From assembly GCA_045837725.1 (NCBI GenBank), contig JBEWZL010000143.1, forward strand, positions 1 to 52,946: a DNA stretch of 52,946 bases, read 5' to 3'. The translations under genes were made by a program, and so were the position numbers. The notes under the pieces were generated by a model. It was not told the DNA's origin. It made no database searches and was given only the letters and a program-made list of their open reading frames with translations. Source of the DNA: Vermamoeba vermiformis (Eukaryota). The stretch's first letter is position 1, and each line of letters opens with the position of its first letter. Positions 10,701 through 52,946 of this stretch are shown here, piece by piece.

Positions 10701-10876
10701 ACCCAATTGAGATCGGTCGATTGATCAGAGACTCAGGTTCGACACCTGTCATTCCATCATCGTGTCATCCTCAACTTGCTGATGTCATGAAACAATGCTG
10801 GCAGATGTCGCCGCACTCCAGACCAAAGATAGAATCAATCATCGAGTCATTGGAATCACTACAAACTCAACTATAA
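7712..10876 (+). CDS. Kelch/beta-propeller-ectodomain receptor tyrosine kinase, reading frame broken near 9420-9442
   Basis: Signal peptide, kelch-like FYFAGG..IVEIYN..W, TM (IVVPIVVVVAGVIALVIVLI-KRRK), GQGASG, HRDVAARN, DFG, PIRWMSPE. Intron 10580-10634. Colinear with 20244-23394. Confidence 0.85.
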
Positions 10877-29150: not shown

Positions 29151-31521
29151 TGTGACAGCCAAAAAAATGTAGGATCAACCGTAAAAAAATTAAATAGCGT
29201 TATTGTATATAAATAAAAATTATCAAATAATAAACTATATTCTTTATTATTACCATATTAATATTTGGTGGTGCTTAAAAAGTAATTGGCACGTGAAAAA
29301 ATAAAAATAAATTTTCATCCGATCCGCTAATAATCTCGGCGGAGGCAGAATACAGAATTGAAAGCTAAAACACTATTTATTTATCATATAAATTTTAGTT
29401 AAAGCATTATATTTATTTGTTTTTACAATGAGATTATATTTTTTGTTTGGTTTTGTCATATTAATACGATGTAAGTACTATTTAGAATATTTGAAAATAA
29501 TTACTAAAAAATCTAAAAATATTAACTTCACGTCTAGATAGTGTCGGCAGTAATTCTCTTTGATTGTTGACGGGCTTGACGAGGACCTTGCTCTTCGCCG
29601 GCACAGGCAAGTTTCCATCTGTGAGATTCGCTTCGCTTCTTTGTATCTGACGCTTTAATAGGTTCAGTCTTCGAGTCCACAGCCGTTGCAATTGTTGGTG
29701 ATGTTGGGGGCTTTGGCTTTTGCTTCTTTGTTGGTGTCTTTGGCTTGAGATCAGCGGCAGATGCAATTCTTTTTTTCCCTTTGTTGACCGGTAAGATCTC
29801 TGCATACTCTCCCTTTGCAATTTTCTCGCGTTCTGACTTGATTTTGTCGAAGTGCTCAGAGTTCTCACGAACAAAAAAAGGTTCGATCTGATCCACATCT
29901 GCTTGAAATACTTCGCCTTTGTTGCCGCCAGCGAGCATTACTGCAGTGTATTGGCCAGCACTGAACGACTTGATGACTACGGCAGGCTGCTTGTCCATAT
30001 ATTTCTTCACTTTAGTCTTCTTTCCAACGTCAATTAGCACGGTGTCGCCACTTTGGTAAGTTCTAATCTTATGCTTCTTTTCAAACCGCTTAATGTGTCG
30101 ATTGGCAGCGGTTTCAATGGCAGCATTTGTCTCCTGAAGAACTTGACGAGCGTAGTCGATCCGCTTCTGCATCTCTTCATCACCTGCACGTAGGTCATTA
30201 GTAACATTCTTTGCTCGTGTCATCTACTTACCATTAGCATCCATCTTCAAGTATCGCGTGCCGCGCAAGACTTCAAATGGAGCACGACCAATTGTAGCAT
30301 GAAACTTGCCGTTATATTGTTCAACAGCAGCTATCGCAACTGCAGACCATGGAGCTCCAATAACTCCATTAGTCATTTTGCGAATTAGTGCCTTGAAGGT
30401 GCCATTGAGCCTCTCGATCTGTCCATTGGTTTGGGGATGCTTTGGTCGCGAGTGCTTTGGTTTGCTTTCAATCAACCGTAAGTACTCCTTGACAATTGCT
30501 GCAGTGAATTCCTTGCCATTGTCAAACTGTACAATTGCAGGGTAACCTTCATTTGAGAAGATCTCTAACATTGCACGTGCAACAGGAGCGGCATGCTTCG
30601 AGGCAAAAGTCTTGATCCACAAGAACTTCGAGTGCGAGTCTACAATTGTCAGAATGTACCGGTCACCAGTGTCAGGGTCAGCGTAGTCCATCTCAGTGAA
30701 GTCAATCTCCACGCGCTCAAGAGGCTCGCTCGCTGTAATTGGTCGGAGTGGTGGTTTAGGGATGTGTCGCCGCTGCTTACCAATCTGACATTTCTCACAA
30801 GTTTTGATGAAGTACTCAACATCATTCTTCATACCCACCCAATGGTAGTCACCACTGATGGCATACAGCGTTGAATCTCGGCCTGCGAGAGATTAGTAAC
30901 GGCTAGTACTATATTTAGTAAGTCACTCACCCAAATGCGTGCCAAATTCTCCATCTCGATGGTAAGCTCCAATGAGCTCTTCTTTCGATTTAAAATCATT
31001 CTTCCCAGGTAAAAATACTCTTCGAAGGCCCTCGTCTATTTTGAAGAATTTTGTACTCAATTTAAAATTTTAATCTAATTTGATCTTACCACCAGACCCT
31101 CTGGGACGGATTGTCTTCGTGAATTTAATTCTTTTAAACAAGACACCATCAACAAGCACATGGGATTCAGCAGCCTGCTTCAGATAGCGACGGCGATTCT
31201 CTTTGGCCATCCCTTGGAGCTCAGGAGGCCACACAATCTGCTTCATCGTATATGCAGCGTGCAAGATGGCAAACAAACCAACGTATGTCTCGTAATCCAT
31301 GTTTGAATGTTAAATAAACAAATTTTGAGCAACAAAATTTTTTTGGCGGATGTGGTCAAAATTTTTCAACACACCAACTCAATACTAATTCATAATATTC
31401 TAATATAATACTGTCACCTAATCATGTGAATATCTCCCATTACTAATTCTTTATTAGTTCAAAGTACAAGAAAAGTGCGCCATTTTTTTAATCTGCGTCC
31501 TGGAGATTTTTGGCTGTCACA
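29151..31521 (-). mobile_element. Complete integrase-type DNA transposon (Ginger2/TDD-like)
   Basis: Perfect 15-bp TIR TGTGACAGCCAAAAA at 29151 and its reverse complement ending at 31521, imperfectly extending to ~40 bp. Direct repeat TTCATT at 29145-29150 and 31522-31527. Single integrase gene; no RT or LTR. Confidence 0.92.
29534..31300 (-). CDS. Retroviral-like DDE integrase/transposase, 4 exons
   Basis: Introns 31036-31089, 30883-30930 and 30184-30231 (GT..AG) give HHCC (YH..THLG..CEKC), DDE (EIDF, FDNGKEF, GQIERLN) and an SH3-like C-terminus (YQSGDTVLI...DQIEPF). Confidence 0.9.
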
Positions 31522-32428: not shown

Positions 32429-33970
32429 CTGTATTCAGAAGACAAGTTGGCTTCCTCGCAGCAAAATCCATACCAACATATTTGGCCCGTGGCTATTTCA
32501 CAAGACAGTTTGTTACGCCGCGCTATTTCCCGGCAAGTTTTTCCGAACGGCACCTACGTTCCAAACAGATATGAAGTCTACGTCCCGCAAGGTGGCTACG
32601 GCTTGAGCGCAATGTATGATCTTAATCCAGACCTGTTGCTGTACAAGACTGCGACGTATTACATGAAAACTCTCATCGACATGCTTATTGGACAAAATTT
32701 CACGATGGGCGTGGATCTGTTTGGATTTCCGTACGATTGGCGCTACCCTGTGAACTATAGACCTCATTTGGATTCCTTGGAAAAAATCTTGAATTCAAAG
32801 CCGAATGAAGAGTGGTTCGTCATTGCTCATTCGATGGGCGGATTAGTGATGCAGGAATACTTCAAGTCAGGCCTGAGCAGCAATCGCAACGACAGTCACA
32901 TCACGCTAATAACGGTCGGCACTCCGTTTCACGGTGTTGGCGGGCGAAGTTTGCAAGGGTTTACGACTGGCTATAACTTTGGCAATTCGCGGCTGTCAAA
33001 TAATGTGGCAAAAGAATTCACCATCGAGACTTTTTCCGCTTACGACTTATTGCCCCAACCGCAACTACAACCTCGTCCGACTGTCAACTTCAAAGATTAT
33101 TACAAAGAAATTGCTGTTGGCGGGTTTCATCCTGAACGAGTGCGAACGCGAGAATGCTTCACGAGACCGAAGTCATACTACGTTTTCAATAGTGGAGTGG
33201 CCACACCTCACGACATCATCACCACGAAAGCTTCAGAAGAAGAGAACGATTACGCAGAAACTTTCGTCGATGGTGACGGAACAGTTCCCAGCAGCTCGGC
33301 GACGAATCACGGCTGTCATAACGAACGTCCCATCAATTTAATGATCAAAGCCGATCACCTGGACATGTTGAACCACATCAGATTTTTAGGACTAGTCTAC
33401 ACTATCATCTACAGCAAGTGTCCAGACGTGAGCGGATATTATCGATGCTCCGACGAGACCATCGTGCATGTGGAACAAACCGTACCCACAATTGATTTCT
33501 TCAGAGGCTGGTACGTCTATGGAAAGAGTAGCAATACAGTAACGCAGGAGATGTATTATTTGGTTGGCCAAACATGTGGCGCATACATTGCCAAATCAGC
33601 AGAAGCATATTGTTACAAGCGTGAAACCACGAAGTTGACCGGATTATCGCCGTCGTTGAAGAATTGGACCGAGACAATCGAGTGCCCAAAAGACTACGTC
33701 TTGGTCGATGGTTTTTGTCTGCGAAACGTAACGACCGTTGTTTATCAATGTGGCGAAGGTTCACAACTTGTCGCCGGAAAATGCACTGCAATGGTCTTGA
33801 ACGAAAAAGAGTCAGTGCCAATGGTGACTATCGGGTTAGGTATTGTGTCAGTCGTGTCAATATCTGGCGCAGCCGTACTAGCGTACCTCTACATCAAGAA
33901 ACGCAAACTTGACAACTTCCAGCCTCTCACCGCCGAAATGGAAGAAGTTTCTGTGGAACGCATGATGTAG
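32429..33970 (+). CDS. LCAT / group XV phospholipase A2-like alpha/beta-hydrolase with Cys-rich stalk and C-terminal TM; 5' end missing
   Basis: LFGFPYDWR, IAHSMGG, GTPFHG, DGDGTVP, ADHLDML; TM VTIGLGIVSVVSISGAAVLAYLYI-KKRK. No in-frame ATG or signal peptide upstream. Confidence 0.8.
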   Translation: MYSEDKLASSQQNPYQHIWPVAISQDSLLRRAISRQVFPNGTYVPNRYEVYVPQGGYGLSAMYDLNPDLLLYKTATYYMKTLIDMLIGQNFTMGVDLFGFPYDWRYPVNYRPHLDSLEKILNSKPNEEWFVIAHSMGGLVMQEYFKSGLSSNRNDSHITLITVGTPFHGVGGRSLQGFTTGYNFGNSRLSNNVAKEFTIETFSAYDLLPQPQLQPRPTVNFKDYYKEIAVGGFHPERVRTRECFTRPKSYYVFNSGVATPHDIITTKASEEENDYAETFVDGDGTVPSSSATNHGCHNERPINLMIKADHLDMLNHIRFLGLVYTIIYSKCPDVSGYYRCSDETIVHVEQTVPTIDFFRGWYVYGKSSNTVTQEMYYLVGQTCGAYIAKSAEAYCYKRETTKLTGLSPSLKNWTETIECPKDYVLVDGFCLRNVTTVVYQCGEGSQLVAGKCTAMVLNEKESVPMVTIGLGIVSVVSISGAAVLAYLYIKKRKLDNFQPLTAEMEEVSVERMM

Positions 33971-34639
33971 TCTGAAACGTAATAAATGGGATTTTTCTGA
34001 GTGTTTAGAACAATGAAGCACACGATCTGACTGCGTCCCAGTTTCTTATCGGGCACCATAGGTTAGTGTAGAAGAAATCGTCTGCCCATCTGAGACCCGA
34101 GAAGGCGTGCAATTGAAAATCTTTGCGAATTTCCCTCGTTGTACAAATAAGTCAGTCGTTCCGTTTGTTCTCGAAGAACAACACGGATAATTGTTGCATG
34201 CTTCTCTATAATTACCATATAATCGACTTCAATCAGTATTCACCGGCTATTCATCAATATGTCGAAGGATGCCCTATTTATCCGCGGAAACAAACTGCGT
34301 CATAGATCCGCGTTTGGAATTAATAATTATTTAATAAGCGGTAATGATTAATTTAGGAACGCCAAAAATAAGCACTTTCCTAATATGCACTCAGAACTTC
34401 TTAAATTAGCAGTCGGATCAAATCAGTTGGATTAAAACTAGAATTTGCGCAAGTACTATTGTTATGCTTTTGCAATATATTTTTAAATTCAGTATTAATT
34501 TTTTTTCGAGCTTAGCTCGTGAATAGGGTAGAAGGGACCTCCTTGACCTAATCCGTAAATCCTTCAACTTTTTTGTTCGGTAAGTTACATAACAATGTTT
34601 AAGGGCGATTTAAATGCCCAGAGAAGCAAGTTGATTTTC

Positions 34640-37600
34640 AGATAGAAGGGTCTATTTTAAGGAAAGATGACTTGAACGAGTGTTATTCCGCTCTTCGAAA
34701 TTAAATTGCCTCGACCCGAATCAAGATAAAAATATGCAAATGCTCGTTTAAAGTATAATTAGATCAATATTGTGCCCATTAATAATGGAGATTTTAAGGG
34801 TGGTTCGGAGAAAGATTGATCTATTTTGTCTGCGTCTCGTAAATATCGAATTTGTTCTTTGTTTTATCACTCAAAGAACTGATTACATCACCGCCTAACG
34901 ATATTAATTTAGTTGCAATGGCCGATGATTTGCCGCCCGATCCGCCGAGTAAGTTGTTTGATACAGGAATAGTGTGTTCGATTATTAATGTGATGTTGCA
35001 GACAATCAAAGCGAAGATCGTCGTTGGGCGAATGAACAAGAAAAGGTCGCACATTTACTCAAGTATTTGGACTATGATCTCATTACAGCCGATCTTCACA
35101 CGCATCTCATGGGAATGGGAGATCACTCGTTCTGGATCGATCAAATCATGCGAAGCTACCTATTTACAATGAAAAATCGAAAATTGGAATCGTTGGAGTG
35201 GTACGGTCCTCTTTGCTATCGCCAACTTCCAAACTTGGAGATCGTGTTGAAGAACACTGAAGAAGCAGGGAACTATTCTGCTCGCTACGATAACAATGAC
35301 GTGGAAATGAAGGTAATGAGCTTCGATTTTTGCTATAAGACTCTCTAACGCAGATAACATTAGCTTCGAAATGATGGTTTCCATTTTACTTTGCATCCAA
35401 CTTCAGATCCGTTTATGTTCGATGTCGTCAGAGAACATCAGAACCAAGAAATAACAAAGCACTTCAAGATAAGCAACTGGGGTCTTTTAACTCACGTTGG
35501 CTGTGAGTGGAATGCCGAATCAAGCAACGGAATTGTGAACGTAGATGCCGTATGTAGCGACTCTGCATGAGCAATCAATCTAATTTCGTTTAATCCTTAG
35601 AAATCCAAGGCAAAGCAAGATTGGCTAAAAATTGGCTTGCCACAAGATGCTTGGCGAGTTAACACTATACTAAATTGGCATGACCTCAAACCAGTCCCGT
35701 TTGAAGACCAACTTGTCGTCAATATTCTTCGACTTCACCGAGAAAGAAGCTGGATGAATCTCCCTCTGTCCACATCGCTGTGCAGGCAGTTGATGTCAAT
35801 GGAAGAAGCTTCAAACACGTTGTCCTGGGACTGGAAAGCAGCACTCAACTTCACCACCGACGTAGTATTTGATATTGAATCATTTCAAGATTCGATGCAT
35901 ATTGCAAGAGAATTCGGAGAGGCCAACGTTCTGCACGAAATAATTGCTCGGCTTGCTTTAAATCGCAATGGTGACAGTGATCGCTACCTCAAGAAGTACA
36001 TGTTCTTCAACGTGAAGACACAGCAATTTGACTATCAATGGGGAATCACCAACACTGATCTATGCTATCTTATGGAAGTACGCAGCGGGACAGAACTCGA
36101 AGCGAAGGCAACACTTGCTCAAATTCGCAACTGCTTCACGATGCTCAACGTCGACGGCTCAGCACCATCAAACGCTGATTTGGTTCATCGATTCAGACGT
36201 CACTTCACCCCCGAGTTTTACCCGATGCGTTTCAAGCTTCGTGATCCAATCCTCGAGCAACATCCATACACACTCACACTTCTGCTCAAGAACGTCTTGA
36301 AGAGCTACTCGCTATCAAGAACAAGCTATGTCGAGTTCTCGCTGGGGTTGAGCACTTTGATAACACCTTGGATCTACAAATACTTGGTTCACGAATCAAT
36401 TTGGAACGCAATTCCCAGTCCCGAAGTGAATGCCGAACGACCAATGATGAAATACAGATTCTTGATTGCATTTTCCCGCAACAGCGTGAAGCTTCCTATT
36501 GACGGAGAATTACGCACGGCTACAGATAGTGAAGAAGCATGGAACTTCTTAGTTAAATCTCCGAACATTGCGATGGCACACTCATTCAACCCTGAAGCTT
36601 ATTCGGACTACGAACCATTCTTCAAACAACTGCATGCAATTTTGTCCTATCTGAAGACAACCAAAGCTTACCAAGATAGCGAACGCGGACTTTTGAAGGC
36701 AGTCGTTGGCTTGGATTTTGTTTCTGATGAACTCGGATATCCGTACTGTCCGTTCATTCAAGACAAATGGCTCGATTTGGCATCGAAGTTCAAGCTTGGC
36801 ATTCGTTTGCATTGTGGCGAAGGTGTTGTTCGAGAGAAGAAAGGACCCATTAAAAGAGCAATGTACGCTCACATGTACATCATGGCACTAGCGATCCGTC
36901 GCATTTGCGCTCGTGGAATCAAGTGTAGAATCGGTCACGGAGTTGCATTTCAAGACTGTATAGTTGAAGAGTTGACTGAAAAGAAGAAGAGCTATGAGCG
37001 CGTTCCTTCCTCTCGCTCGTATTGCATTCCTGATGGCACACGATCCCTAACTCCATTCTTGGCTCTCATCTCAGATTTGTTGGTCGAAGTGAACATCACC
37101 AGCAACTCGTACCTTGTTCAACATGCAGACTCGTCTTCGTTGATCAAACTGCTTGACCACTGGCTTCTATGCACTGATGACGATGGTGTGTGGGCACCTC
37201 CACCGTGTGCTCATGATCACAGACTCCAAGCACTCGAGTATTGTCGTGCTATATCAATGGGTTACATCGACCAAGATGACCTGCATAAGGCAGAACGTTG
37301 GCGAGAGTTCTGTTTTGATCACTCAGAACCAGAGCAAAAAGAGACTCTGAAGCTGGAAGATACCTGGACGTGCAAGTTTCATCCTATTCGTGCCTACGCC
37401 ATGATCTCCCTGGCATTGTGTACCCAACCAGAGGTTTGGAGCGATTCAATTCTTTCTCTTGGGTTGACCGAACTTTTGCACTCATTTGGCTTTTACGATG
37501 GATTTGCAAGATTCGCGAAAACGATCACTCCGTTTGCCGAGCGCTTGACGGATACGACATTTTGGCACAGCAAGGATCGTAAAATTCAGTACTTCCTACG

Positions 37601-40600
37601 AGTACTGAATCCAGATGGGTCATTCTATGGATTACTGCGCTCATTGTTCTTGGGCTACGACGAGTGTCTTCAACTTATTTGGTATGAACGAGACATCAAG
37701 GCACTTTGTGATATAGATTGTCCGGTACCGCCTCTGTTGCCCAAGTACACAAACAATGCTGAAGCCAGACGAGCAGAAGCAAAGAAGCTACTCAGGCTAT
37801 CCAAGGCTGCAGCAAAACAAATCGTTCATTGGATAACAGACGTTCGCAACCTGGCCGAAGAAAAGAACGATTCGGACTTGATTCGATGGATGAACTCACG
37901 CTCATCCCTTCTCAACGAACGTGGTCGTTCTGAGATGAAATATGCTACCAAATACAATCAATCCAATCAGTTGGACTTGCACGAGGGTCCGTACGACGAA
38001 TCTCTCTTCAGCAAGTGGCTACAGAAGAGTGCAAACGATGGCGTCTGGAAAACAGTTGTCGAGAAGTCCGAAAAGATCAAGGACTTAGAAGGACTAATTC
38101 TCTGCGAATCGAAATTTTTGCAACCAAGTATCGCAGACCAGCAAGATGCGCACAACTTCTTCCACATCATTTGCAACATGCAAGACCAGGACTGGTATAT
38201 TCGCCCTCTTCAGCCCAGCTATCTCGGAGAGCACGTGCACATTGACACCCCTGATTTAGAGGAATTTCACACAACTATTACCAAGGATGACAGAGTTCCT
38301 CTTGTCTGGTACCGTGCTGCGTTGTCAGTTGCAAAGCGATTATTTCCACTTACTCAGTCCGTACGATCGAGTGATGCAATCAATAAGAAGGCCAAAGATG
38401 AATATGAGAACAATCCGCAAATCATTCGCATTGCTGGCGTTGGCTACGCAGGATCAGCCATCGCAGTTCTTGCTGGACTGATGATTGCAACGGAATTTCA
38501 TCACCAAGAGGCAGTGAAGAAAACGTCAGTCTCAAACGAAGTAGTTGTTTGGACGTATGGCGGCAAGCAGTTTGGCTCCAAATCGTTCCACAACAAAGTC
38601 CACGACTTGTGCGCTTACAACTTGGAAATCACTCAGTGGCGAAGCTTGCAAGATCTTGAATCTCGAACTGGCGAGATCGACTCGTTGTTCTCACCTCCGT
38701 ACTGCTACCTGAAAGACATCTTGGTTTACCCAATTGGACCACCAATGATAATACCATGGGGCCTACGACCTTCTTGGCATTACTTCACATTGATGCTTCA
38801 TCACCTTCCTCCATGTATGGAATTCCGCAGCAAGATAACGAAACCAAACGAAATGAACATCTTTTTCGCTGATGACAAGAAAGACTTGAAGTCTCTCGCT
38901 CAGTCTCTCTACTTCCCTGAATGCACATTAATATGCACACATGAGGACCAACGTGATGAAAATACCGACTACGGCCCTCTAACGGAAAAGAATCCGAATG
39001 TGCAGGCTATCCCTATGAACAAAGTCAGAATATCACCATACGTATGGAAGTGGCATCCTCAACAGCGCAAGAGCTGGACCGACATATTCAATTGGACTCC
39101 CGTGCAAACAACAATGCGACTTCTTGCAGATTTATTGCTTGCAATACTTAGCCTTCCCGACGATATCATCATATCGCTCTCTCCAAATCAATGTGATATC
39201 GTAACATTCGTTACAATGTCCCCAACAGACGTACAGGAGTTAAATGATGCAATAGCACGTTATGCCAGAAAGTCTGGACAGAAAAAACTCCCGCACTTCA
39301 TGAACCTCATGAACCGACAAGACACTTTCAACGAAGAGTACTGCTTGCTTCTCTTGGACCTCACGTACTTGCGTAGAAGCTCTGATAATAACTCACGCAC
39401 CTCCAAGATCAGGCGACAGCTGGAAAAAGCGTTTTCAACAACAATCAAACCCTTCCGTCATCCAGAGAGCGATTTAATCACGAACATGGAAATATTGCTC
39501 ATTACTCTGCAAAACAGCAACGCTTGCAATCCCTTTTTGCGTTTCATTCTCAGTCAGCTTGATAATATGATAGACGAACCAAACGTGCACTTGGACATTG
39601 GCAAATTCAAATCGGATGTTACCCAACTACTCCGCCGTGGCTCGCCAAATGATTACGAAGCCTGGAAATTGAAAACGGAGATTGACGACGCGATGGACTA
39701 TTACAGCAAGTACAAAAAGAAGTTCGACAAAGCCGAAGTCGGTTCATACAAGTCGTTTGATTTGGCCCTTTCACTCTACTTTTTGAGCGGCGAAGACAAA
39801 ACCCAAGTCTACGAGGTGATGTTACGACAACTTTGGAATGTTTCAAATTGGTTGATTGTACGAATTGAACACCAAGATATTGCCGAAGTTAAAGGTCTGT
39901 GGAAGTACAAGCTTGAACAAGTACAAGCAACACTCGATTTTTTGCAAAACGAAAAAGAAAATATGTCAGAAGAATGCAATTACACCTACAACGTGGAACT
40001 CCAAAAGTTCAGAATCCTCACTAATGAGATGAATGCAAGTGGTACATTAAAATGGTATCGGTTCACTCGTTTCACATTTCTAATTCATTTCAGACGGGTG
40101 GAAATCGCTTCACAAGACTCTCAATTCATGGCGTACAATGACAACGAGAAAGAATCACGTTCTTTTGGGCAACGCACTTTTCCGATACCTTCAGGCCGTT
40201 GCAGAGCCAAATAACGATTTGCTATCAAGTTGCAAAGATTTGGTCAATCGCTTAAGCCACATCAAGAATGATCCCGTTGCCCCGTGGGTTAAAGGATTGT
40301 TACTTTACGAACTTGGACTGTTTGAAAAGGATCGCAGCTATTTCGTCAAGGCTGTCGATGTGTTCTCAACGATATGGAAGACGGGCGTTCAGCCAAAGGA
40401 CAGATTCTTGATTGCCTTGAACGCTGCATGTTGCTCAGCGAGAGTCGGAGACAAAGGCCACATAGCGCAAGCAGTATCTTGGATTGGTAACTTCTTCGAA
40501 GTGCTTGAAATCGCTGACGACATCGATCGCAAGGTGGCGTTTGTTTGGCTCGAAGACGAATTGGAAAGCAAAACGGGCGACTTGAATAACCCTCAACTTA

Positions 40601-40860
40601 AGCAAATCATTGAACCATGGTTCGACGAAACAAAGTCACACTTTGGAGGCAAGCCTGCAACTCCTCAAGTTTCAAACGTTGCCAAGCCTTCGACCCCTCA
40701 ATCTTCGCAAGGTGAAAATCTTTCAGTCCAAGAGCAGCAAGAAGCTTGAATCAAGTTTGCGCTAGGGATTGCGCTCAAAAACGTTTTTGACGGTGCAATG
40801 CCGTTTTTTAATTTTACAGAATTGAATTAGTTGAAACGTAAATAAATTTTTGGTTTTATT
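34640..40860 (+). repeat. Segmental duplication unit (copy A); copy B at approx. 44091-50530
   Basis: Upstream region, exons, introns and 3' flank (tacagaattgaattagtt...gtaaataaattttttggttttatt) align between the copies. Confidence 0.9.
34918..40749 (+). CDS. Large adenosine-deaminase-like / pseudo-lipase / helical-TPR-like fusion protein, copy 1 (5 exons)
   Basis: Exons approx. 34918-34948, 35002-35312, 35364-35549, 35601-40041 and 40094-40749 splice in frame. DLHTH, GLDFVSDE, LHCGE, RIGHG, EVNITSN, CTDDDG. Confidence 0.85.
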
Positions 40861-41099
40861 CCATTCGATCGCGTCTCATCCGGATTTATGAACCCATCGC
40901 TAAATTAAAGCAATAAATATCAATAATATAATATTCACATACTTAACATGCAATTTATCTCCAAACAAATGTTGTACGCAAGATCTGAATTTTTCTGGTG
41001 GAACGTAATAATTCACTTTATTTTCGCTTGCCACTCGAAAATATCGCTTCAAATATCCTGTAACGATTAAGAGCGCTATCCGTAGCGCTCGTCTCGTGT

Positions 41100-41617
41100 G
41101 GGACCCGTTTAAGTAAATCGGGCCGGACTGGAAAACGGACGTACAAAAACCGACCCGACATTAGGCCGGCTTAAGTTGAGATATCCTTTACACCACGATA
41201 CCGTACTTACCCACCTATTTTTTATGATACCTTGGGCCTACTTTACCGTAACAATTTCGATGCGGCCACGAATGGTGACAGTACCCCTCCCATAGCAGAT
41301 TGCATCGATTTCCAGATCTCCATCATAGAAGCCAAAGATCAAATAAATTCTGCCATAAAACACCATAATCTATGTAGGGCATCCTATCTTACAAGGCATA
41401 AGTGCTATCATGATGAGATTGAATGGTGGGATCTACGAGATTCGTTCCAAAGCATTTTCTTTTAAAATCACCTTCCAGTCATGTAGCCCTTAGGTGTCGC
41501 CAGCATATCCCAACTGGAGATAGGTGATTTGGTGCTAGTCCGGCAAACCGGCAAAAGGTCGGCTTTGAAATCGGACGTCGGTTTTTCAGTCCGGCCCGAT
41601 TTACATAAACGGGTCCC
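41100..41617. mobile_element. Non-autonomous TIR element (MITE), Merlin/IS1595-like
   Basis: ~43-bp TIR GGGACCCGTTTAWGTAAATCGGGCCGGACTGRAAAACSGACGT. 8-bp TSD TCTCGTGT at 41092-41099 and 41618-41625. No transposase. Confidence 0.9.
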
Positions 41618-42706
41618 TCTCGTGTTCAACTTAAATAATTCGTAAACAATAATTTTTATTGTCGTTAATTTTAATAAACTCTCATACACACGTAAGCAAT
41701 CTTACATATCAAAATATGCTGCGACTTCCTACTCTTGAAATCGTTGTCATGTGGATTCGGTCGAGCAAATCCGCTTTGTTCTCGCCACCACGATCAAGAC
41801 GGCGATGAATACAATACTTTTTCCTCTCTCCGTTGAGTTCTATGGGTGCTCTCGCTTATCCGGCATAGCGCTTGTTGGGGATAACAGGCGTGTTGGCGGG
41901 AACGAATTTAATTGATCTAAGTTGCGTGCATGATTCAAGGAGTTAAAACACAAACAACATGTTAAGACCGCGCAATAACGTCAACAACACGTGATGGCAT
42001 TCAACCAATGCGCGCGTTCGTTCTTCAAGAGCTAATCGTTTATCAGATTGCAAGCATCTCGTCTGCTTGTCCAGCAAATACAAGCCGTAAATTAAAACCA
42101 ACGGTAAGTGGACAATTTTCTATATTTTTTGAGGCCAGCCTGGCAATTTTTAGAACAAATAGCAATTTTTTAGATCACGATAAAAATTAGTTTCTGCTAA
42201 CAAATGCATTTGCTGTCTCGTTTATGCTCATTTAGATGTGATATTATATTACGAGTTAAAAGGCGATACTAACAAATCTTGAACAGAGAAAAACAAGATA
42301 ACAAACCAGATCACTTACACGCTTAGATAACAAAGCAATACACTTTGAACTCGTACGTCGTCTTTTTATCCACGGACCACACTACGTCGCAGAGCTATTG
42401 CACGGAATAACTCTGGCGAAGTCTATTTTGAAAGCTTAATTTGATTTTATCTTGACAAGGGTTCGAAGGTATGTCTTTTGAACGGCGGAATAACATTCGT
42501 TCAAGTCATCTTTCCTTAAAATAGACCCTTCTATCTAAATATCGAAGCGTTTCTGTCAATTTTATTATTGTTCATCCTATTTTAGTCGGCTGCCCTACCT
42601 TGGGCCAGGCCCCATTTATGCTGAAAATTCGGGTGGCACAAAAGGATATAAGGCTTTAACCCCATTCTAACTGTATTTATCTTCAGCTACTCGCATCATC
42701 ACCACC

Positions 42707-43558
42707 ATGGCTCGAAGAAGTTTGATGGTGAACGACAACTTAGTCGACATTAGCCATAGTTTCGACGTACCTCTGCCTGACAAAGTCTTCAAAATCAATG
42801 CACGCGACAAATCTTTGAATTTGCCCGCATGCATCACGGACTTACCGAACTACGAATTAAGAGAACACCTTTACTCATTTAAGACCGCCTCAGCTCTTGG
42901 ACTCTCCTATGGCCCTTTATCGAGCAATTGGAACTTGACATCCGACGACAAAGTTTACATCAGCGAGGTCGTCAAGTACAAAGATATCTTCGACGGGAAC
43001 CTGACAATTCGCTATGGCGTTGGCATGCGCGTCTTCTATCAACTGAAAATTCTGAACACTGAGGCAAAAGTGTCAAGTCTCCCTCTCATTCTGGCTTCAG
43101 CGCAGTTTGACTACATCAAAGCGAACGTCGAAGTAAAGGTCATTGGAGTGCCGACATTCACCGCACCGATGAGCACCACGTTGTCGATGGAATCTTACCA
43201 GACGATCCAGAAGGCGGTGGAAGCGTTTCAATCGATGATCCAAACCGAGAACACTGGCATTTCTCCGCAAATATTATCGATCGCTTACGATGACCACAAA
43301 CTTACTAACGTCATCGATAAGTACGATAAAGTGTCCGCTCAGTGCTTTGCGCTCAAGATGATTAAGAAAGGATACACTCGTTCACAAGCATTGGCCAAAT
43401 GTCCAAAAGCTCCTGCGGGGTTTAGAGACGAGGTGGATCAAGTATTCAGCGACTTTAGTTCCTTGGACTCAAACGTGGCTGCGTGGTACGGCACTAGACT
43501 TTTAAAGAACTTGTCTGTAACATACCACGACAAATGGGATCAGTCCAACCCGTATTAA
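42707..43558 (+). CDS. Intronless 283-aa protein of unknown function (beta-rich N-terminal part, helical C-terminal part)
   Basis: Clean ORF, accaccATGG start context, TATA-like gatataag near 42645, aataaa near 43625, coding-like C-ending codons. Confidence 0.85.
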   Translation: MARRSLMVNDNLVDISHSFDVPLPDKVFKINARDKSLNLPACITDLPNYELREHLYSFKTASALGLSYGPLSSNWNLTSDDKVYISEVVKYKDIFDGNLTIRYGVGMRVFYQLKILNTEAKVSSLPLILASAQFDYIKANVEVKVIGVPTFTAPMSTTLSMESYQTIQKAVEAFQSMIQTENTGISPQILSIAYDDHKLTNVIDKYDKVSAQCFALKMIKKGYTRSQALAKCPKAPAGFRDEVDQVFSDFSSLDSNVAAWYGTRLLKNLSVTYHDKWDQSNPY

Positions 43559-44391
43559 CTTTTAAATAGTACTAATTATCGGTGTTATCGTTCTCAGTAT
43601 TCATAACAGTTTTTTGCGTTACAAATAAAAGATCTCGGATTCGAATTTTGTTGCATCGCTCATGTTCTTAGTTTTAGCGGTTATCTTGTTATCGAGCCGC
43701 AAATAACATCTTTACTTAATACTTTGTTCGTTTCCTTTTGTTCCAAACAGACAATCGCGGTAGGGCGAAATTCGATTTTAACTTAAAATAGCGAACTGGA
43801 ACAACACTCGCCTCTTCAATATGATCTTCAAATTATTATTGGACCTTACCTGTGCGTTAAGTACAGAAATTAACACTCTAATTGGCACGCAGCATGTTTG
43901 GAGCAAGATGGGCTAAAACCGAGTTGACGGTAAGCCATGTCCCCTTATTTTATTACAATAATTTGCACGTCGTAATTAAACGCTAATTTGGGCATTAAAT
44001 TGAAATGTAAGACCAATCCGATCGAATCCAATTTTAAATAAATTCCGAGCTTGATAATTAAAAAAAATACTAGTTTTGGGAAGCGCTTTCAGATAAAGGG
44101 CTCTATTTTAAGGAAAGATGACTTGAACGAATGTTATTCCGCTCTTGAAAATTAAAAATCGTTCAAAAAGGCATCACGCCGCCCTCGACCCCGAATCAAG
44201 ATAAAAATTTGCAAATGGTCGTTTAAAGTATAATTCGATCAATATTATACTCAAATAATGGAGATTTTGGAGGTGGTTCGGAGAAAGCTTGATCTGTTTT
44301 GTCTTGCGCAGCTTAAATATCAAGTTTGTTCATTGTTTTATCGCTCAAAGAACTTATTACATCACCTTCTAACGATCGTAATTTAGTTGCA

Positions 44392-47300
44392 ATGGACAAT
44401 GATTTGCCGCCCGATCGGGCGCGAGGTTAGTTTCGTGAACACATTCTCCCTGCGCTTTTCTAACCATGATGACCTGAGCAGATAATCAGCAAAAAAAAGA
44501 CGATCATGTTACTCGAGATCACGGTACCAATAATGATTTGACCCAACTGAGTAAGTTGTTTAGTACCAGGATCTTGTGGTCGATTATTAACGTGATGTTG
44601 CAGACGACGATTGGGAGAATGAACAAGACAAGATCGCACGTTTACTCAAGTATTTGAACCAAAAGCTCATAATGGCCGATCTTCACACGCATCTCATGGG
44701 AATGGGAGATCACTCGTTCTGGATCGATCAAATCATGCGAAACTACCTATTTACAAAGAGATATCGACCGTTGGAATCATTGGAGTGGTACGGTCCTCTT
44801 TGCTATCGGAAACTTCCAAACTTGGAGATCGTGTTGAAGAACACTGAAGACGAAGGAAGCTATTCTGCTCACTACGAGAACCAAAAAGACGTGGAAATGA
44901 AGGTATGAGCAAGAGATTAATTGCGATAACAATATCAATCTAACGTCAATAACATTAGCTTCACAATGACGGTTACCATTTTACGTTGCATCCAACTTCA
45001 GATCCGTTTACATTCCATGTTGTCAGAACAGTCAGGCACAAAAAAATAACAAAACATTTCAAGCTAAGCAATTGGGGTCTTTTAACTCATGTTGCATGCA
45101 AGTGGAATGCAAAAGCACGCAACGGAATTGTGCACGTCGATGCGGTATGTTACGTTACTACTTCGCATTAACGATCAATCTAATTTGTTTTGATCTTTAG
45201 AAATCAAAGGCAAAGCAAGATTGGTTCAAAATTGGTTTACCAAAAGATGCTTGGCGAGTTAACACGATACTCAATTGGCATGACCTTAAAACTGTCCCGT
45301 TTAACGATCGACTTGTCTTTAATATCCTCCGACTTCACCCAGAAACAAGCTGGATGAATCTTCCTCTGTCCACATCGCTGTGCAAGCAGTTGATGTCAAT
45401 GGGAGAAGCTTTGAACATTTCGACATGGAAAGCAGCACTCAACTTCACCACTGATGTGGTATTTGATATTGAATCATTTCAAGAATCGATGCACATTGCA
45501 AGAGAAGTCGGAGAGGCCAACGTTCTCCACGAAATAATTGCTCGGCTAGGTTTAAATCGCAAACGCAAAGGTGAGATCACTGACAGTGATCGCTACCTCA
45601 AGAAGTACATGTTCTTCAACGTGAAGAAACAACAATTTGACTATCAATGGGGAATCACCAACACTGATCTGTGCTACCTCATGGAAGTACGCAGCGGGAC
45701 AGAACTCGAAGCGAAGGCAACACTTGCTCAGATTCGCAACTGCTTCACGATGCTCAACGTCGACGGCTCAACACCATCAAACGCTGATTTGGTTCATCGA
45801 TTCAGACGTCACTTCACCCCCGAGTTCTACCCGATGCGTTTCAAACTTCGCGATCCAATCTACGAACAACATCCATACACACTCACACTTCTGCTCAAGC
45901 ACGTGTTGCAAATCTACTCGCGATCAAGAACAACCTATGTCGAGTTCTCACTGGGGTTGAGCACCTTGATAACGCCTTGGCTCTACAAATACTTGGTTCA
46001 CAAATCAATTTGGAACGCAATTCCCAGTCCTGAAGTGAATCCCGAACGACCAATGATGAAATACAGATTCTTAATTGCATTTTCCCGCAACAGCGTGAAG
46101 CTTCCTATTGACGGAGAATTACGCACGGCTACAGACAGTGAAGAAGCATGGAACTTCTTAGTTAAATCTCCGAACATTGCGATGGCACACTCATTCAACC
46201 CCGAAGCTTATTCGGACTATGACCCATTCTTCAAACAACTGAATGCGATATTGTCCTGTCTGAAGACGACCAACACTTACCAAGATAGCGAACGCGGACT
46301 TCTGAATGCAGTTGTTGGCTTGGACTATGTTTCTGATGAACTCGGATATCCGTACTGTCCATTCATTCAAGACAAATGGCTTAATTTGGCACACGAATTC
46401 AAGTTTGGCATTCGCTTGCATTGTGGCGAAGGTGTCGTTCGAGAGACAAAAGGGCCCATTAAACGAGCAATGTACGCACACATGTACATCATGGCACTGG
46501 CAATCCGTCGCATTTGCGCTCGTGGAATCAAGTGCAGAATCGGTCACGGAGTTGCATTTCAAGACTGTATAGTTGAAGAGTTGACTGAAAAGAAGAAGAG
46601 CTACGAGCGAGTTCCTTCATCTCGCTCGTATTGCATTCCTGATGGCACACGATCCCTTACTCCATTCTTGGCTCTCATCTCAGATCTGTTGGTCGAAGTG
46701 AACATCACCAGCAACTCGTACCTTGTTCAACGTGCAGACTCGTCTTCTTTGATCAAACTGCTCGATAACTGGCTTCTATGCACCGATGACGATGGTGTGT
46801 GGGCACCTTCACCATGTGCTCATGATCACAGACTTCAAGCACTCGAATACTGTCGTGCAATATCAATGAGCTACATCGACCTTGATGACTTGAAGAAGGC
46901 AGAACATTGGCGAAAGTTCTGTTTTGATCACTCAGAACCAGAGCAAAAAGAGATTCTGAAGCTGGAAGATACCTGGACGTGCAAGTTTCATCCTATTCGT
47001 GCCTATGCCATGATCTCCATGGCATTGTGCACCCATCCCGAGGTTTGGAGTGATTCAATTCTTTCTCTTGGGTTGACCGAACTTTTGCACTCATTTGGCT
47101 TTTACGATGGATTTGCAAGCTTCGCGAAAGCGATCACTCCGTTTGCAGAACACTTGATGGATGCGACATTTTGGCACAGTGAGGATCGTAAAATTCAATA
47201 CTTCCTACAAGTACTGAATCCAGAAGCCAAGATGAAGGAGAAAACCGCAGCCCGGCGCAGTGGTGGGTCACAACAGATCCTAGCTGCATCGTGTGCAACG

Positions 47301-50300
47301 GACAAACCCAAACAGTTCAAATATGGAATATTGCGCTCATTGTTCTTGGGCTACGACGAGTGTCTTCAACTTATTTGGTATGAACGAGACGTCAAGGCAC
47401 TTTGTGAAATAGATTGTCCGGTACCACCTCTGTCGCCAAAGTACTCAAACGATTCTGAAGCCAGACGAGCAGAAGCAGAGAAGCTACTCAGGCTCGCCGA
47501 GGCTGCAGCAAAACAAATCGTTAATTGGATCACTCATGTTCGCAACTTGGCTGAAGCAGAGAACGATTTGGAGTTGATTCGATGGATGAACTCACGCTTA
47601 TCTCTTCTCGATGAACGTGGTCGTTCTGAGATGGAGTATGGCACCAAATACTGTCAGTCCAGTAAGTCGGACTTGAATGAGGGTCCGTACGACGAATCTC
47701 TCTTCGGCAAGTTGCTAGAAAACGCAAATAGTGTTTGGAAAACAGTTGTCGAGAAGTTTGAAAGGATCAAGGAATTGGAAGGACTAATTCTCTGTGAATT
47801 GAAATTTTTGCAACCAAGTATCAACGCAGACCAGCAAGACGAGCTCAATTTCTTCCACATCGTTTGTAACACACAAGACCAGGACTGGTATGTTCGCCCT
47901 CTTCAGCCCAGTTATCTCGGAGAGCCCGCGCACGTCGATGCACCAGATTTGGAAGAATTTCACACAACAATTACCAAGGACGATAGAGTTCCTCTTGTCT
48001 GGTACCAAGCTGCCTTGTCAATTGCAAAGCGATTATTTTCGCCGACATCACAAAAAGCAAAGTCTCTATCGAGTAAGGTTGCAATATCGAGCGATGAAAG
48101 AAAAAAGAAGGCCAAAGATGAATATGAGAACAATCCTCAAATCATTCGCATTGCTGGTGTTGGCTACTCAGGATCAGCCATTGCAGTTCTTGCCGGACTG
48201 ATGATTGCGACGGAATTTCATCACCAAGAGGCAGTGAAGAAAACGTCAGTCTCAAATGAAGTAGTTGTTTGGACTTACGGCGGCAAGCAGTTTGGCTCTA
48301 AATCGTTCCACAACAAAGTCCACGACTTATGTACTTACAACTTAGAAATCACTCAATGGCGAAGCTTGCAAGATGTTGAATCTCGAACTGGCGAGGTCGA
48401 CTCGTTGTTCTCACCTCCGTACTGCTACCTGAAAGACATCTTGGTTTACCCAATTGGACCACCAATGATAATACCATGGGGCCTACGACCTTCTTGGCAT
48501 TACTTCACATTGATGCTTCATCACCTTCCTCCATGCATGGAGTTCCGCAGCGAGATAAAGAAACCGAACGAAATGAACATCTTTTTCGCCGATGACAAGA
48601 AAGACTTGGTGTCTCTCGCTCAGTCTCTCTACTTCCCTGAATGCACATTAATATGCACAGACGAGGACCAACACGATGAAAATGCCAACTATGGCCCTCT
48701 AACCAAAAAGAACCCGGATATGAAGGTTGTCCCCATGGACAGAGTCAGAATATCGCCGTACGTATGGAAGTGGCATCCTCAACAGCGCAAGAGTTGGACC
48801 GACATATTCAATTGGACTCCCGTGCAAACAACAATGCGACTTGTTGGAGATTTATTGCTTGCAATACTGAGCCTTCCCAACGATATCATCATATCACTCT
48901 CTCCAACTCAATGTGATATCGTAACCTTCGCTACAATGTCTCCAAAGGACATATGGAAGTTAAATAAGGCAATGGCACGTTATGCCAGAAACTCTGGACA
49001 GAAAAGACTCCCACACTTCATGAACCTCATTAACCGGCGAGACACTTTCAACGAAGAGTACTGTTTGCTTCTCTTGGACCTCACGTACTTGCGTAGAATA
49101 TCTGATAATTACTCGCATACCAAGATCAGACGACAGCTGGAAAAAGCATTTTCAACAACTATCAAACCCTTCCGTCATCCAGAGAGCGATTTACTCACGA
49201 ACATGGAAATATTGCTTATTACTCTGCAAAACAGCAACACTTGCAATCCCTTTTTGCATTTCATCCTTGGTCAGCTGGATAATATGATAGACGAATACTT
49301 GGACATCGGCAAATTCAAATCTGATGTTACTCAACTACTCCACCTTGGCTCACCAAATAATTGCAATGCCTGGAAATTGAAAACGGAGAACAACGCTGCA
49401 ACGGTGGATTACAAAAAGAAGTTCAACAAAGCTGAAGTCGGTTCATACAAGTCGTTTGATTTAGCCCTTTCACTCTTCTTTCTGAGCGGCGAAGACAAAA
49501 CCCAAGTCTACGAGGTCATGCTACGACAAATTTGGAATATAACAGACTGGTTGACCAGACGAATTGCACAACAAGATATTGCCGAAGTTAAAGATCTGTG
49601 GGAGTACAAGATTAAGGAAGCACTACAGAGACTTAAATTTTTGCGAAACGAAAAAGAAAATATGTCAGAAGAATGCAATTACATCTACGACGTGGAACGT
49701 CAAAAGGTCATGATCCTCACTAAAAAGAAAAATGCAAATGGTACGTTAAAATGGTTTCAGTTCACCCAATTCATATTTCTAAGACCATTTCAGACGGTTG
49801 GAAATCGCTTCAAGACACTCTCAATTCATGGCGTTCAATGGCAACGAGAAAGAATCACGTTCTTTTTGGTGACGCGCTTTTCCGATACCTTCAGGCCGTT
49901 GCCCCACCAAATAACGAATTCCTATCAAGTTGTGAAGACTTAATCAATCCCTTAAGCCCCTTAAGCCGCATCAAGAACGACCCCGTTGCCCTATGGGTTA
50001 AAGGATTGTTATTTTACGAACTTGGACTGCACAAGGATCGCAGCTATTTCGTCAAGGCTGTCGATGTGTTCTCAACGTTATGGAAGACGGGCATTCAACC
50101 GAAGGACAGATTCTCTATTGCTTTGAACGCTGCATGTTGCTCGACAAGAGTCGGAGACAAAGGCCACATAGCGCAAGCAGTATCTTGGATTGGTAACTTC
50201 TTCGAAGTGCTTGAAATCGCTGACGACATCGATCGCAAGGTGGCGTTTGCTTGGCTAGAAAACGAATTGGAAAGCAAAACGGGCGACTTGAACAATGCTC

Positions 50301-50482
50301 AACTTAAGCAAATCATTGAACCATGGTTCGACGAAACAAAGTCACACTTTGGAGGCAAGCCTTCAATGCCTCAAGTTTCAGTCGTTGTCAAGCCTTCGCC
50401 CTCAATCTTCGCAAGGCGAAAATCTTGCAGTCCAAGAGCAAGAATCAGCTTGAATCAAGTTTGGCGCGAGCGATTGTTTTAA
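44392..50482 (+). CDS. Large adenosine-deaminase-like / pseudo-lipase / helical-TPR-like fusion protein, copy 2 (6 exons)
   Basis: Same motifs (DLHTH, GLDYVSDE, LHCGE, RIGHG, EVNITSN, CTDDDG). Extra exon 44482-44550. C-terminal tail frameshifted relative to copy 1. Confidence 0.85.
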
Positions 50483-52165: not shown

Positions 52166-52461
52166 TTACGAATGGCAAAGGCACGGAGTTGCTTTGAGAG
52201 AGTTGTAGTGCGCTGGGACTTCACCGAGAACATCGTCGAAGCAGAAGAAATCAACCGTGTTCACAATCAGCGAGTTGTCAATCTTGCCGCCTCCACCAAA
52301 CAAAGCCTTTTTGCCGATAGTAGATGCTGCAAAATCTCCACAAGCAAAACTTAAGGTTGTAGTACTCGCCCATTGGCCTGCCTCCGCGTCAAAAATATCC
52401 ACGTCAAACGTGGTGCTATCGTAGTTGCATCCTCCACCAAACAGTGCGTATTTTCCGACAG
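52166..52461 (-). pseudogene. Fragment of a kelch receptor-kinase ectodomain
   Basis: GKYALFGGGCNY..VDIFDAEAGQW..GDFAAST..ALFGGGGKIDNSLIVNTVDFF parallels ~27250-27480. No start, TM or kinase. Confidence 0.75.
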
Positions 52462-52658
52462 AATTGGTTCACAGATGTCGTTGATATCTTCAACTACGCG
52501 ACAGGTGCCTGGTCTACGTCCCAGCTCAGCGTTCCTCGCATGCTCTTCGCTGCTTCTAATAATTATTAGCCAGTCGATGGTACCGTAGGATAAATATTCG
52601 ATAGAAACGACACTGTTATAATTTTTTCTTGCTCATGAAAGCTGTCGTGTGACGCATT

Positions 52659-52900
52659 TTATATTTGAGTTTGTATTGATTCCAAAGACTCGATGATTGA
52701 TTCAATCTTTGGTCTCGATTGCGGTGACATCTGCCAGCATTGTTTCATGACATCAGCGAGTTGAGGATGACATGACGATGGAATGACAGGTGTCAAACCT
52801 GAGTCTCTGATCAATCGACCGATCTCAATCGGATCTGCTTCGCTGTGAGGCTCTTGTCGTGCAGTGACTTCGTACATCAGAATACCAAATGACCAAATAT
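52659..52900 (-). CDS. Terminal exon of another receptor tyrosine-kinase paralog (gene continues beyond window)
   Basis: aacAG acceptor at 52901-52902, then IWSFGILMYEVTARQEPH...CWQMSPQSRP...TQI*. Confidence 0.9.
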
Positions 52901-52946
52901 CTGTTAAAACGTACTTGTTAATAATGATGCGTCATCGGTCCCGCGT

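Follow-up and report, generated by a model that had tools for sequence, protein, structure and literature searches.

Two tandem Vermamoeba vermiformis genes encoding a divergent adenosine deaminase-fold domain followed by a lipase-like domain: candidates for gated deaminases of adenine nucleotides or nucleosides

The DNA considered here, referred to as the window, is a stretch of 52,946 nucleotides of a Vermamoeba vermiformis contig (JBEWZL010000143.1) with the features of a eukaryotic sequence and a GC content of about 41%. It carries two tandem paralogous genes on the + strand, copy 1 and copy 2, each of which encodes a protein of about 1,900 amino acids (aa) (the window proteins P0001 and P0002) in which a divergent domain of the adenosine deaminase (ADA) fold is followed by a helical linker, a domain resembling class-3 lipases and a helical end (Table 1). 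The gene models were built from the window sequence, the full-length relative P0180 (1,847 aa; in the cluster of the best match P0003) and spliced contigs. The nine introns of the two genes are all of the GT-AG type and 51-56 nt long, and the stop-to-stop frames of the large exons (1,537 codons at 35601-40214 and 1,580 codons at 45201-49943, both +) are well beyond what would be expected by chance in DNA of 41% GC. P0180 is 51% identical to copy 1 over residues 11-1833; the small exon 3 and the N-terminus of copy 1 are confirmed by their homology to this full-length protein. An earlier interpretation of the window from its letters alone (the sequence-only reading) had placed two spliced giant genes at 34918-50482; these coordinates were borne out, and its length of about 1,850 aa was close to the final values.

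Table 1. Coordinates of the two paralogous genes and of the domains and motifs of copy 1 (positions in the window)
Feature	Position	Strand	Description
Copy 1, gene	34918-40749	+	5 exons, 1,874 aa; in-frame model with canonical splice sites, ATG at 34918
Copy 1, exons	34918-34948, 35002-35312, 35364-35549, 35601-40041, 40094-40749	+	GT-AG introns of 51-53 nt
Divergent ADA-fold deaminase domain, copy 1 (putative)	35002-37328	+	exons 2-4; motifs and AlphaFold 2 model
Copy 1, motifs	HxH 35097-35105, GLDFVSDE 36708-36731, HCGE 36810-36821, RIGHG 36927-36941, EVNITSN 37086-37106, TDD 37173-37181	+	read in frame
Family-specific insertion between barrel strand 1 (HxH) and strand 2 (YVEFSLG)	35106-36326	+	helical with a beta-hairpin; ends in FTPEFYPxRFxLKDxxYxQ
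Helical linker with conserved GRSEMEYG	37329-38051	+	mostly helical in a low-confidence AlphaFold 2 model; conserved with P0180, P0187, P0004 and P0120
Class-3-lipase-like alpha/beta-hydrolase domain (putative)	38052-38825	+	weak, concordant sequence and fold evidence; Tyr at the nucleophile position (codon 38445-38447)
C-terminal helical region, end of exon 4	38826-40041	+	about 400 residues; DSSP helices of a low-confidence AlphaFold 2 model
Exon 5, conserved tail ALNAACCSARVG..AQAVSWIG	40094-40749	+	aligns to the tail of P0180 (34% identity, E 2e-22)
Copy 2, gene	44392-50482	+	6 exons, 1,938 aa; stop codon ends at 50482
Copy 2, exons	44392-44425, 44482-44550, 44604-44902, 44959-45144, 45201-49740, 49794-50482	+	in frame, GT-AG introns

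Five of the nine introns (35313-35363, 35550-35600, 40042-40093, 44426-44481 and 44551-44603) are spliced out in contigs of two public sequencing runs, X8 and X10, and one X8 contig joins the end of exon 1 of copy 1 to position 35002. The last two joints of this list, which flank the extra 69-nt exon of copy 2, come from an X8 contig. In both runs the depth is zero across 3.2 kb of intergenic DNA (40992-44237) while the exons are covered. It should be noted that the organism labels of X8 and X10 differ from each other and from that of the best DNA match, and that the RNA nature of the runs is a guess made by software. Contigs lacking introns together with zero intergenic depth are therefore considered to represent spliced transcripts, either from these genes themselves or from alleles or orthologues that share 97% identity or more with them. 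Both genes are real and expressed. Another join in an X8 contig leads from copy 1 (38028) to the matching place in copy 2 (47730), skipping 9,701 bases; either the assembly has fused the paralogues into a chimera, or that organism carries a recombinant or single-copy allele.

A blastn alignment of the two copies extends over 5.8 kb, with the introns and some of the upstream DNA in it, at 88-90% identity, and the duplicated unit is about 9.45 kb long; the two proteins are 82% identical, as calculated with a preliminary copy 2 model without the 69-nt exon. Nonsynonymous (dN) and synonymous (dS) divergence according to Nei and Gojobori were 0.082 and 0.251 (dN/dS 0.33) when calculated from preliminary models, which differ from the final ones by one codon and the 69-nt exon. 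The ratio is 0.16 in the deaminase core and as low as 0.02 over 100 codons (copy-1 residues 595-694) that take in RIGHG, EVNITSN and the beginning of TDD; it is 0.21 in the lipase-like part, 0.40-0.46 in the linker, the helical region and the tail, and highest, 0.57, at the N-terminus. Purifying selection acts on both copies, which are therefore both being maintained. The duplication had been called recent in the sequence-only reading: the copies are indeed tandem duplicates, but with a dS of 0.25 they are not very recent ones. Copy 2 has gained the 69-nt exon and a shifted C-terminal tail, the last approximately 45 residues being in a different frame in copy 2 (50330-50482) than in copy 1 (40600-40749), so that the two proteins end differently. 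About 100 bp from upstream of copy 1 (34633-34731) recur in inverted orientation between the copies (42445-42543) with 84% identity; they may have been left behind by the duplication or may represent a small repeat.

The assignment of the N-terminal module is based on its motifs and on its predicted fold. All deaminase motifs that had been listed from the sequence alone were found, by direct reading of the frames, at their places in both copies. In copy 1 the HxH motif lies within DLHTHLMG and the TDD motif within CTDDDG, and the metal-binding and catalytic residues are H43/H45, H580/E583, H622 and D702/D703, with equivalents in copy 2. HxH, HxxE, the His of GHG and the Asp of TDD are the defining residues of the ADA superfamily; here the residues of HxH, HxxE, GHG and TDD are invariant or nearly so in alignments of 31 and of 53 relatives. 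Also the histidine tetrad and the catalytic Glu, in the description that PMC9994260 gives of RdrB and ADA, are present in the window proteins.

An insertion of about 300 residues after HxH had been noticed before; it is real and somewhat larger. With exons 2 and 3 counted, HxH and barrel strand 2 are separated by approximately 375 residues, and the distance from HxH to HCGE is 535 aa. The latter spacing is 197 in mouse ADA. For RdrB from Escherichia coli a value of 344 follows from the positions H154 and H498 (PMC9994260). The block in which the insertion ends (columns F202-Q220), just ahead of strand 2, is the most conserved non-catalytic block of the family and probably lines the pocket; most relatives align only from query residue 80 or so onward. 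The residues that follow HxH are L-M-G. In nucleoside-specific ADAs an Asp, which contacts the 5'-OH, stands in the place of this Met, which may be taken as a lead to a phosphorylated substrate but not as a result.

Despite its motifs the domain is not recognised by the curated models. In Pfam there was no match to A_deaminase at E ≤ 1 for either window protein (gathering cut-off 27 bits), and the scores of the relatives, 17.9-23.6 bits, were below the cut-off in all cases seen, with E ≤ 1e-3 in 8 of 91 relatives. No score being above the PF00962 cut-off, the domain is therefore regarded as a relative of ADA at the level of the superfamily rather than as a member of PF00962 as currently modelled. 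In NCBIfam no family was found for the window proteins, and a sequence search of PDB chains with P0001 gave nothing at E ≤ 1. With a profile of 31 relatives, sub-significant matches to N6-mAMP deaminase (MAPDA) from Arabidopsis and to ADA from Vibrio were obtained (E 0.2-0.36), extending from EVNITSN to TDD; a match of the same profile to huntingtin was discarded as low-complexity.

The fold was predicted with AlphaFold 2 from an alignment of 53 sequences for exon-4 residues 1-600 of copy 1, a range that leaves strand 1 with HxH (exon 2) outside the model. The mean predicted local distance difference test (pLDDT) was 83.8 and the predicted template modelling score 0.85. Barrel strands 2-8 of the model are YVEFSLG, YRFLIAFSR, VVGLDFV, IRLHC, CRIG, VEVN and LCT, preceded by a well-ordered helical and beta-hairpin subdomain (blocks with pLDDT 85-96). 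Foldseek, which the sequence-only reading had proposed as a check, retrieved ADGF, ADAL, ADA, AMPD2 and Cad1 (45 rows at E ≤ 1e-3). In a VIA search of 48,161 chains, which was independent of Foldseek, ADA from Pseudomonas aeruginosa was on top (3ou8, Z 17.5 over 280 aa), followed by human ADAL (8qch, 17.0), Plasmodium vivax ADA (16.2), ADA2 (15.4 over 343 aa), RdrB (14.8 over 337 aa), Cad1 (14.0) and plant AMP deaminase (12.6). In a second look with VIA, at a set of 1,000 chains from Foldseek, ADA-clan proteins occupied all of the top 42 rows (Z 14.2-17.6), 2qvn being the best (Z 17.6 over 285 aa) and RdrB having the longest alignment (8hr7_K, Z 16.1 over 354 aa, root-mean-square deviation 4.7); Cad1 had a Z of 15.3 over 300 aa, and cytosine deaminases followed at 13.6. 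Over the two VIA searches, N6-mAMP deaminase had a Z of 15.1 (6ijm) and 15.6 (6iv5), and cytosine deaminases were lower (13.0-13.6). ADA, ADAL, RdrB, ADGF and Cad1 are tied within about 1.5 Z. The N-terminal module is predicted to have a fold of the ADA type in general, not specifically one like that of RdrB.

For the middle domain, several lines of weak evidence point in the same direction. Pfam Lipase_3 is found below threshold (E 0.014-0.05, 13.9-15.8 bits with a cut-off of 22). The AlphaFold 2 model of the 913-residue region behind the deaminase, made from 6 sequences only, is poor (mean pLDDT 56.3), with a strand-helix core around IIRIAGVGYAGSAIAVLAG at pLDDT 77-86. The ten best Foldseek rows for this model were all fungal class-3 lipases or plant PLA1 (E 0.19-0.45). 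In a wide VIA search with the same model, lipases from Penicillium, Rhizopus and Rhizomucor came first (3g7n_B Z 10.0, 6a0w 9.3, 6qpr 9.0; 174-186 aa), and then EDS1-PAD4 (7xey_B, Z 8.2) and other EDS1 entries (7.0-7.7; 8b28 7.7). The alignments with lipases and with EDS1/PAD4 are confined to about model residues 250-530 (about 252-528 for EDS1 and PAD4), the lipase-like part.

The nucleophile position was located by hhalign against the GHSLGG elbow of the relative P0089, which places Tyr949 of the big exon on the serine (weak, E 0.12); in the model a strand ends at V947 and a helix starts at G948, with the strand-to-helix turn at G948/Y949. When the alignment of the C-terminal region was compared with P0089 by hhalign, only the deaminase parts matched, and this result was discarded. 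At the same position there is Tyr in copy 2, Phe in P0180 and P0187, Asn in P0120, Ala in P0004 and Met in P0083, and never Ser; the adjacent Gly-Ser as well as an Asp and a His further on are invariant in the lipase-like modules. Since the nucleophile serine is replaced by Tyr, the domain is presumably non-catalytic. A dead class-3 lipase, as the sequence-only reading had it, is the best reading of these concordant hints from sequence and model: weak but consistent support came from Pfam, Foldseek and VIA and the serine of GxSxG is gone, although all Pfam scores are sub-threshold.

The rest of exon 4 is predicted, at low confidence, to be helical. For this region there was no Pfam family, and an Atlas search gave uninformative scores (0.75-0.77). 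For exon 5 the Atlas protein-language-model neighbours carry the name tetratricopeptide repeat (TPR; 0.91-0.93, with a recognition below the usual level), whereas Pfam gave no TPR match at E ≤ 1 for exon 5 or for the window proteins. That the tail is TPR-like is thus only a lead. Of the helical, TPR-like end that had been proposed, the helical character stands and the TPR part is without Pfam support, with a weak language-model lead alone.

A HMMER scan of 1.84 billion representative sequences with the 600-residue domain yielded 257 clusters at E ≤ 1e-3, 189 at 1e-10 and 53 at 1e-30; ordinary ADAs were not reached. This number of clusters is far too low for a housekeeping enzyme; the window proteins are not orthologues of housekeeping ADA or AMP deaminase. 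Named members of the family are from bdelloid rotifers (Adineta ricciae and Rotaria species), where the UniProt automatic name is "adenosine deaminase domain-containing protein", and from the choanoflagellate Salpingoeca kvevrii, the rest being metagenome or transcriptome proteins. A single match of the catalytic half to plasmids (tblastn, E 3) was judged to be due to chance. In a FastTree phylogeny of 113 domain segments, midpoint-rooted and read without inspection of supports, the window copies are sisters and are joined first by P0180, then by P0037 and then by P0038/P0005/P0006; P0004, P0120 and P0083 were outside the coverage filter.

The C-terminal 940 residues have very few relatives: with residues 600-1537 as query only the clusters of P0187 and P0003 were found. 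With local hidden Markov models the combination of deaminase and lipase-like module was detected in the cluster of P0180 and in P0004, P0120 and P0083; P0187 starts just behind the deaminase domain and carries the lipase-like module, and P0005 and P0006 have the linker. The claim that the architecture is lineage-specific was not upheld: an ADA domain with a dead-lipase-like one is also seen in four or more further groups of divergent clusters (those of P0180, of P0004, P0005 and P0006, of P0120, and of P0083), and rotifers and a choanoflagellate share the deaminase module. Among 30 long relatives, Pfam domains were Roc in 5, ankyrin in 3 and UCH, Tyr/Ser-Thr kinase, Dynamin_N, Lipase_3 (E 5.6e-9), Trypsin_2 and OTU in one each. 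The Lipase_3 match is presumably that of P0089 (2,136 aa), which has a canonical lipase elbow, SGHSLGGA, at residue 1218 or thereabouts, upstream of the deaminase and the only canonical GHSLGG elbow found among the relatives collected; pairing of deaminase and lipase therefore recurs, in reverse order and with an intact nucleophile. Among 61 further relatives Kelch repeats were found in one (P0048) and a SAVED-like domain in another, P0068 (695 aa, N-terminally incomplete, on a 3.7-kb ENA contig), where it covers profile positions 11-184 of 190 with residues 491-685. Of the three subset scans that led to P0068, two came first and covered 19 proteins, all SAVED-negative; the SAVED stretch of P0068 matches the solved SAVED-CHAT protein 8tl0 weakly (E 0.42).

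The family is thus rare and so far eukaryotic only, and its deaminase module is shuffled among many partner domains. That the domain combination belongs to no named family, as had been stated from the sequence, agrees with the lack of any significant Pfam, NCBIfam or PADLOC match. PADLOC 2.0 includes a model for RdrB, and there was no RdrB match among 6 proteins (E ≤ 0.01) or among 31 family members (E ≤ 10). Full-text literature searches, with subscription-only papers and supplements outside their reach, revealed no paper on the family or on a eukaryotic RdrB- or Cad1-like deaminase. The deaminase is rated as a new ADA subfamily and its arrangement with the other domains as a new architecture.

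The surroundings of the deaminase genes are rich in lineage-specific duplicates. There are paralogous single-pass receptor kinases at 7706-10710 and 20244-23111 (+) and at 26856-28319 and 52166-52931 (-), with big repeat-rich ectodomains (Kelch-like by eye) and kinase domains of the HRDVAARN type, the kinase parts of the first two being nearly identical. Retroelement-like open reading frames with an integrase-core-like sequence, again by eye, lie at 29534-30892 (-). The upstream neighbour (32429-33970, +) is an alpha/beta hydrolase of the LCAT family (PF02450, E 2e-14) with a C-terminal hydrophobic segment, for which no link to the deaminase genes was seen apart from adjacency. Between the copies there is a 295-codon frame (42671-43558, +) with no Pfam family (best E 0.045) and zero depth in X8 and X10; it may not be a gene.

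How these findings can be combined is best described as follows. Each gene would give rise to a large cytosolic multidomain enzyme, whose N-terminal module would be a catalytically competent, zinc-dependent hydrolytic deaminase of the adenosine/AMP deaminase fold. Most likely it would convert an adenine nucleotide or nucleoside, perhaps a phosphorylated one, to the inosine form. The helical linker, the dead class-3-lipase-like domain and the helical tail would probably regulate the deaminase or act in sensing, the non-catalytic C-terminal two-thirds controlling when or where deamination takes place. By analogy with RdrB, Cad1 and KomA, the outcome might be poisoning of the nucleotide pool or an inosine-nucleotide signal. 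A gated adenine-nucleotide or nucleoside deaminase with a role in conflict or stress is the favoured reading, to which we assign a probability of roughly 45%. We infer the activity of the deaminase, the adenine moiety of its substrate and the gating by the C-terminal modules; the evidence for a conflict or stress role is circumstantial: the family is rare and patchy, its module is shuffled freely among partners, a single relative has a SAVED-like fusion, the genes are duplicated locally, and there are precedents in bacteria. An immune effector that depletes nucleotides, as the sequence-only reading proposed, is a plausible candidate.

Several observations weigh against a gated deaminase acting in conflict or stress. 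The window proteins have no recognised sensor or immune domain in Pfam or PADLOC, and the model of the C-terminal region is of low quality. The dN/dS is highest at the N-terminus (0.57) and the tail (0.43-0.46) and exceeds 0.8 in no segment, which at this resolution means that there is no signature of diversifying selection or of an arms race. Ordinary signalling proteins, too, frequently carry Roc, ankyrin, kinase and UCH domains, and the frequencies of partner domains are inflated because the 30 relatives were chosen for length. The SAVED-like domain of P0068 scored 22.8 bits with a cut-off of 26.2 and was seen in 1 of the 91 relatives scanned. No relative that would link the family to defence islands came from prokaryotes or viruses: pattern scans of one genome for each of 185,579 prokaryotic species and of IMG/VR found none, which, with two short peptide patterns only, does not prove absence; among the viral structures of BFVD there were 0 matches at E ≤ 0.001 in a search of limited sensitivity. 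Finally, raw RNA runs labelled as the species of the best DNA match contained 0 (X21) and 6 (X23) reads, which is no test of expression but lends no support.

A more far-reaching version of the favoured reading is that the proteins represent a class of eukaryotic ATP/dATP (or AMP) deaminases, so far undescribed and gated by a sensor, that would act in cell-autonomous immunity as functional counterparts of RdrB, Cad1 and KomA. The lipase-like domain and tail would form an EDS1/PAD4-like receptor for a trigger, a small molecule or a protein, and a flood of inosine nucleotides or the depletion of ATP would block a giant virus or an intracellular bacterium. This version appears unlikely.

An enzyme of regulated purine metabolism or signalling without an immune function fits the same facts nearly as well; of the alternatives it survives best, and we consider it only somewhat unlikely. 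It would control adenosine, AMP or ATP locally, or clear modified adenine nucleotides as ADAL and MAPDA do, the extra domains serving in localisation or as a scaffold. Indeed, ADAL and N6-mAMP deaminase (8qch, 6ijm and 6iv5) match the model as well as the immune ADAs do, the PDB offers sequence-level hints to MAPDA and ADA only, purifying selection acts on both copies, and partners such as Roc, ankyrin, kinase and UCH are those usually seen in general signalling. Less easily reconciled with such an enzyme are the very patchy occurrence (257 clusters in 1.84 billion), the highly variable architectures, the tandem duplication and the SAVED-like fusion in one relative, as well as the fact that no curated ADA model recognises the window proteins.

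It is improbable that the domain is an active amidohydrolase for a different kind of substrate, such as a cyclic or ADP-ribose-derived nucleotide signal, another purine or pyrimidine, or a polymer-bound base. The fold is host to many chemistries, the cytosine deaminases are only slightly lower in Z, and the large insertion with the FTPEFYPxRFxLKD block beside strand 2 could reshape the pocket; however, the ADA-type set is complete (HxH, HxxE, GHG, SN and TDD), and the top 42 structural rows are all deaminases of adenine, adenosine or AMP/ATP. A pseudoenzyme in which the ADA-like domain merely binds a nucleotide and the protein serves as a scaffold is quite improbable: the adjoining lipase-like domain has already lost catalysis, but neither copy has lost a metal ligand or the catalytic Glu or Asp, which are all invariant or nearly so in the 31 and 53 relatives, and the dN/dS is 0.02 around RIGHG, EVNITSN and the start of TDD. 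Least credible of all is a direct homologue of RdrB (or Cad1) acquired by horizontal transfer, for which the longest structural alignment and the enlargement of both ADA folds by insertions (for RdrB as given in PMC9994260) may be cited, since PADLOC found no RdrB in the 6 or 31 proteins scanned, the Z is tied with those of plain ADAs, which have no such insertions, the pattern scans of prokaryotic genomes and IMG/VR revealed no relative, and spliceosomal introns interrupt the genes, beside which nothing like RdrA is encoded.

In bacteria, enzymes of the ADA fold have lately come to be known as anti-phage effectors or signal makers (RdrB, Cad1/CAAD and KomA). If the window genes do code for gated nucleotide deaminases, immunity or signalling by base-modified nucleotides would reach into the eukaryotes, and plant EDS1 would be joined by a second case in which a dead class-3 lipase has been put to use in regulation. 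A new ADA subfamily with an insertion of approximately 375 residues would be worth a biochemical study even for a non-immune enzyme.

With class-3 lipases (PF01764) and with EDS1, PAD4 and SAG101 the window proteins share an alpha/beta-hydrolase likeness, the fungal lipases being closest (Z 9.0-10.0; EDS1-PAD4 8.2). PAD4 and SAG101 either lack the nucleophile or can do without it, and their lipase-like domain is followed by a helical region. The alignments reach the lipase-like part only, however, and do not extend into the EP domain; EDS1 proteins, in turn, are without a deaminase. With ADA, ADAL and ADGF (PF00962) they have in common the (beta/alpha)8 barrel and the HxH/HxxE/GHG/TDD set, the best structural matches being 2qvn, 3ou8 and 8qch. 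They differ in having no Pfam match, in the approximately 375 residues between strands 1 and 2, in the multidomain context of about 1,900 aa and in belonging to a rare, patchy family.

RdrB of the RADAR system, according to the account of its structure and activity in PMC9994260, has an enlarged ADA fold with insertions and converts ATP and dATP to ITP and dITP. Large insertions are found here too, and RdrB has the longest structural overlap, as mentioned above; but the window genes are eukaryotic and intron-bearing, and they are without sequence relation to RdrB and without an RdrA partner, no AAA+ ATPase of this kind being present among the neighbours (the LCAT-like hydrolase upstream and the family-less frame between the copies). 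RdrB, a protein of about 90 kDa, forms a dodecamer. The comparison with RdrB drawn in the sequence-only reading has therefore to be narrowed: there is no sequence match, and the fold score is tied with those of ordinary ADA, ADAL, ADGF and Cad1. Judged from sequence and model, RdrB is a structural analogue and not a demonstrable relative.

In Cad1/CAAD, the CARF-fused ADA of type III CRISPR, and in KomA a sensor domain governs an ADA-fold enzyme that serves as an immune effector or makes a signal. A CARF-fused deaminase is described as converting ATP to ITP (PMC13276650), and KomA of the Kongming system as producing a dITP signal (bioRxiv 10.1101/2024.12.20.629578). KomA is recognised by Pfam as an ADA, unlike the present family. 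The window proteins contain no CARF or SAVED domain in Pfam, and a CARF_ADA match in 1 of 31 relatives (E 0.022) was dismissed as being at chance level. Cad1 does match the model of the deaminase domain in fold, and the SAVED-like domain of the relative P0068 would correspond to a sensor fold for cyclic oligonucleotides, as does the CARF domain of Cad1.

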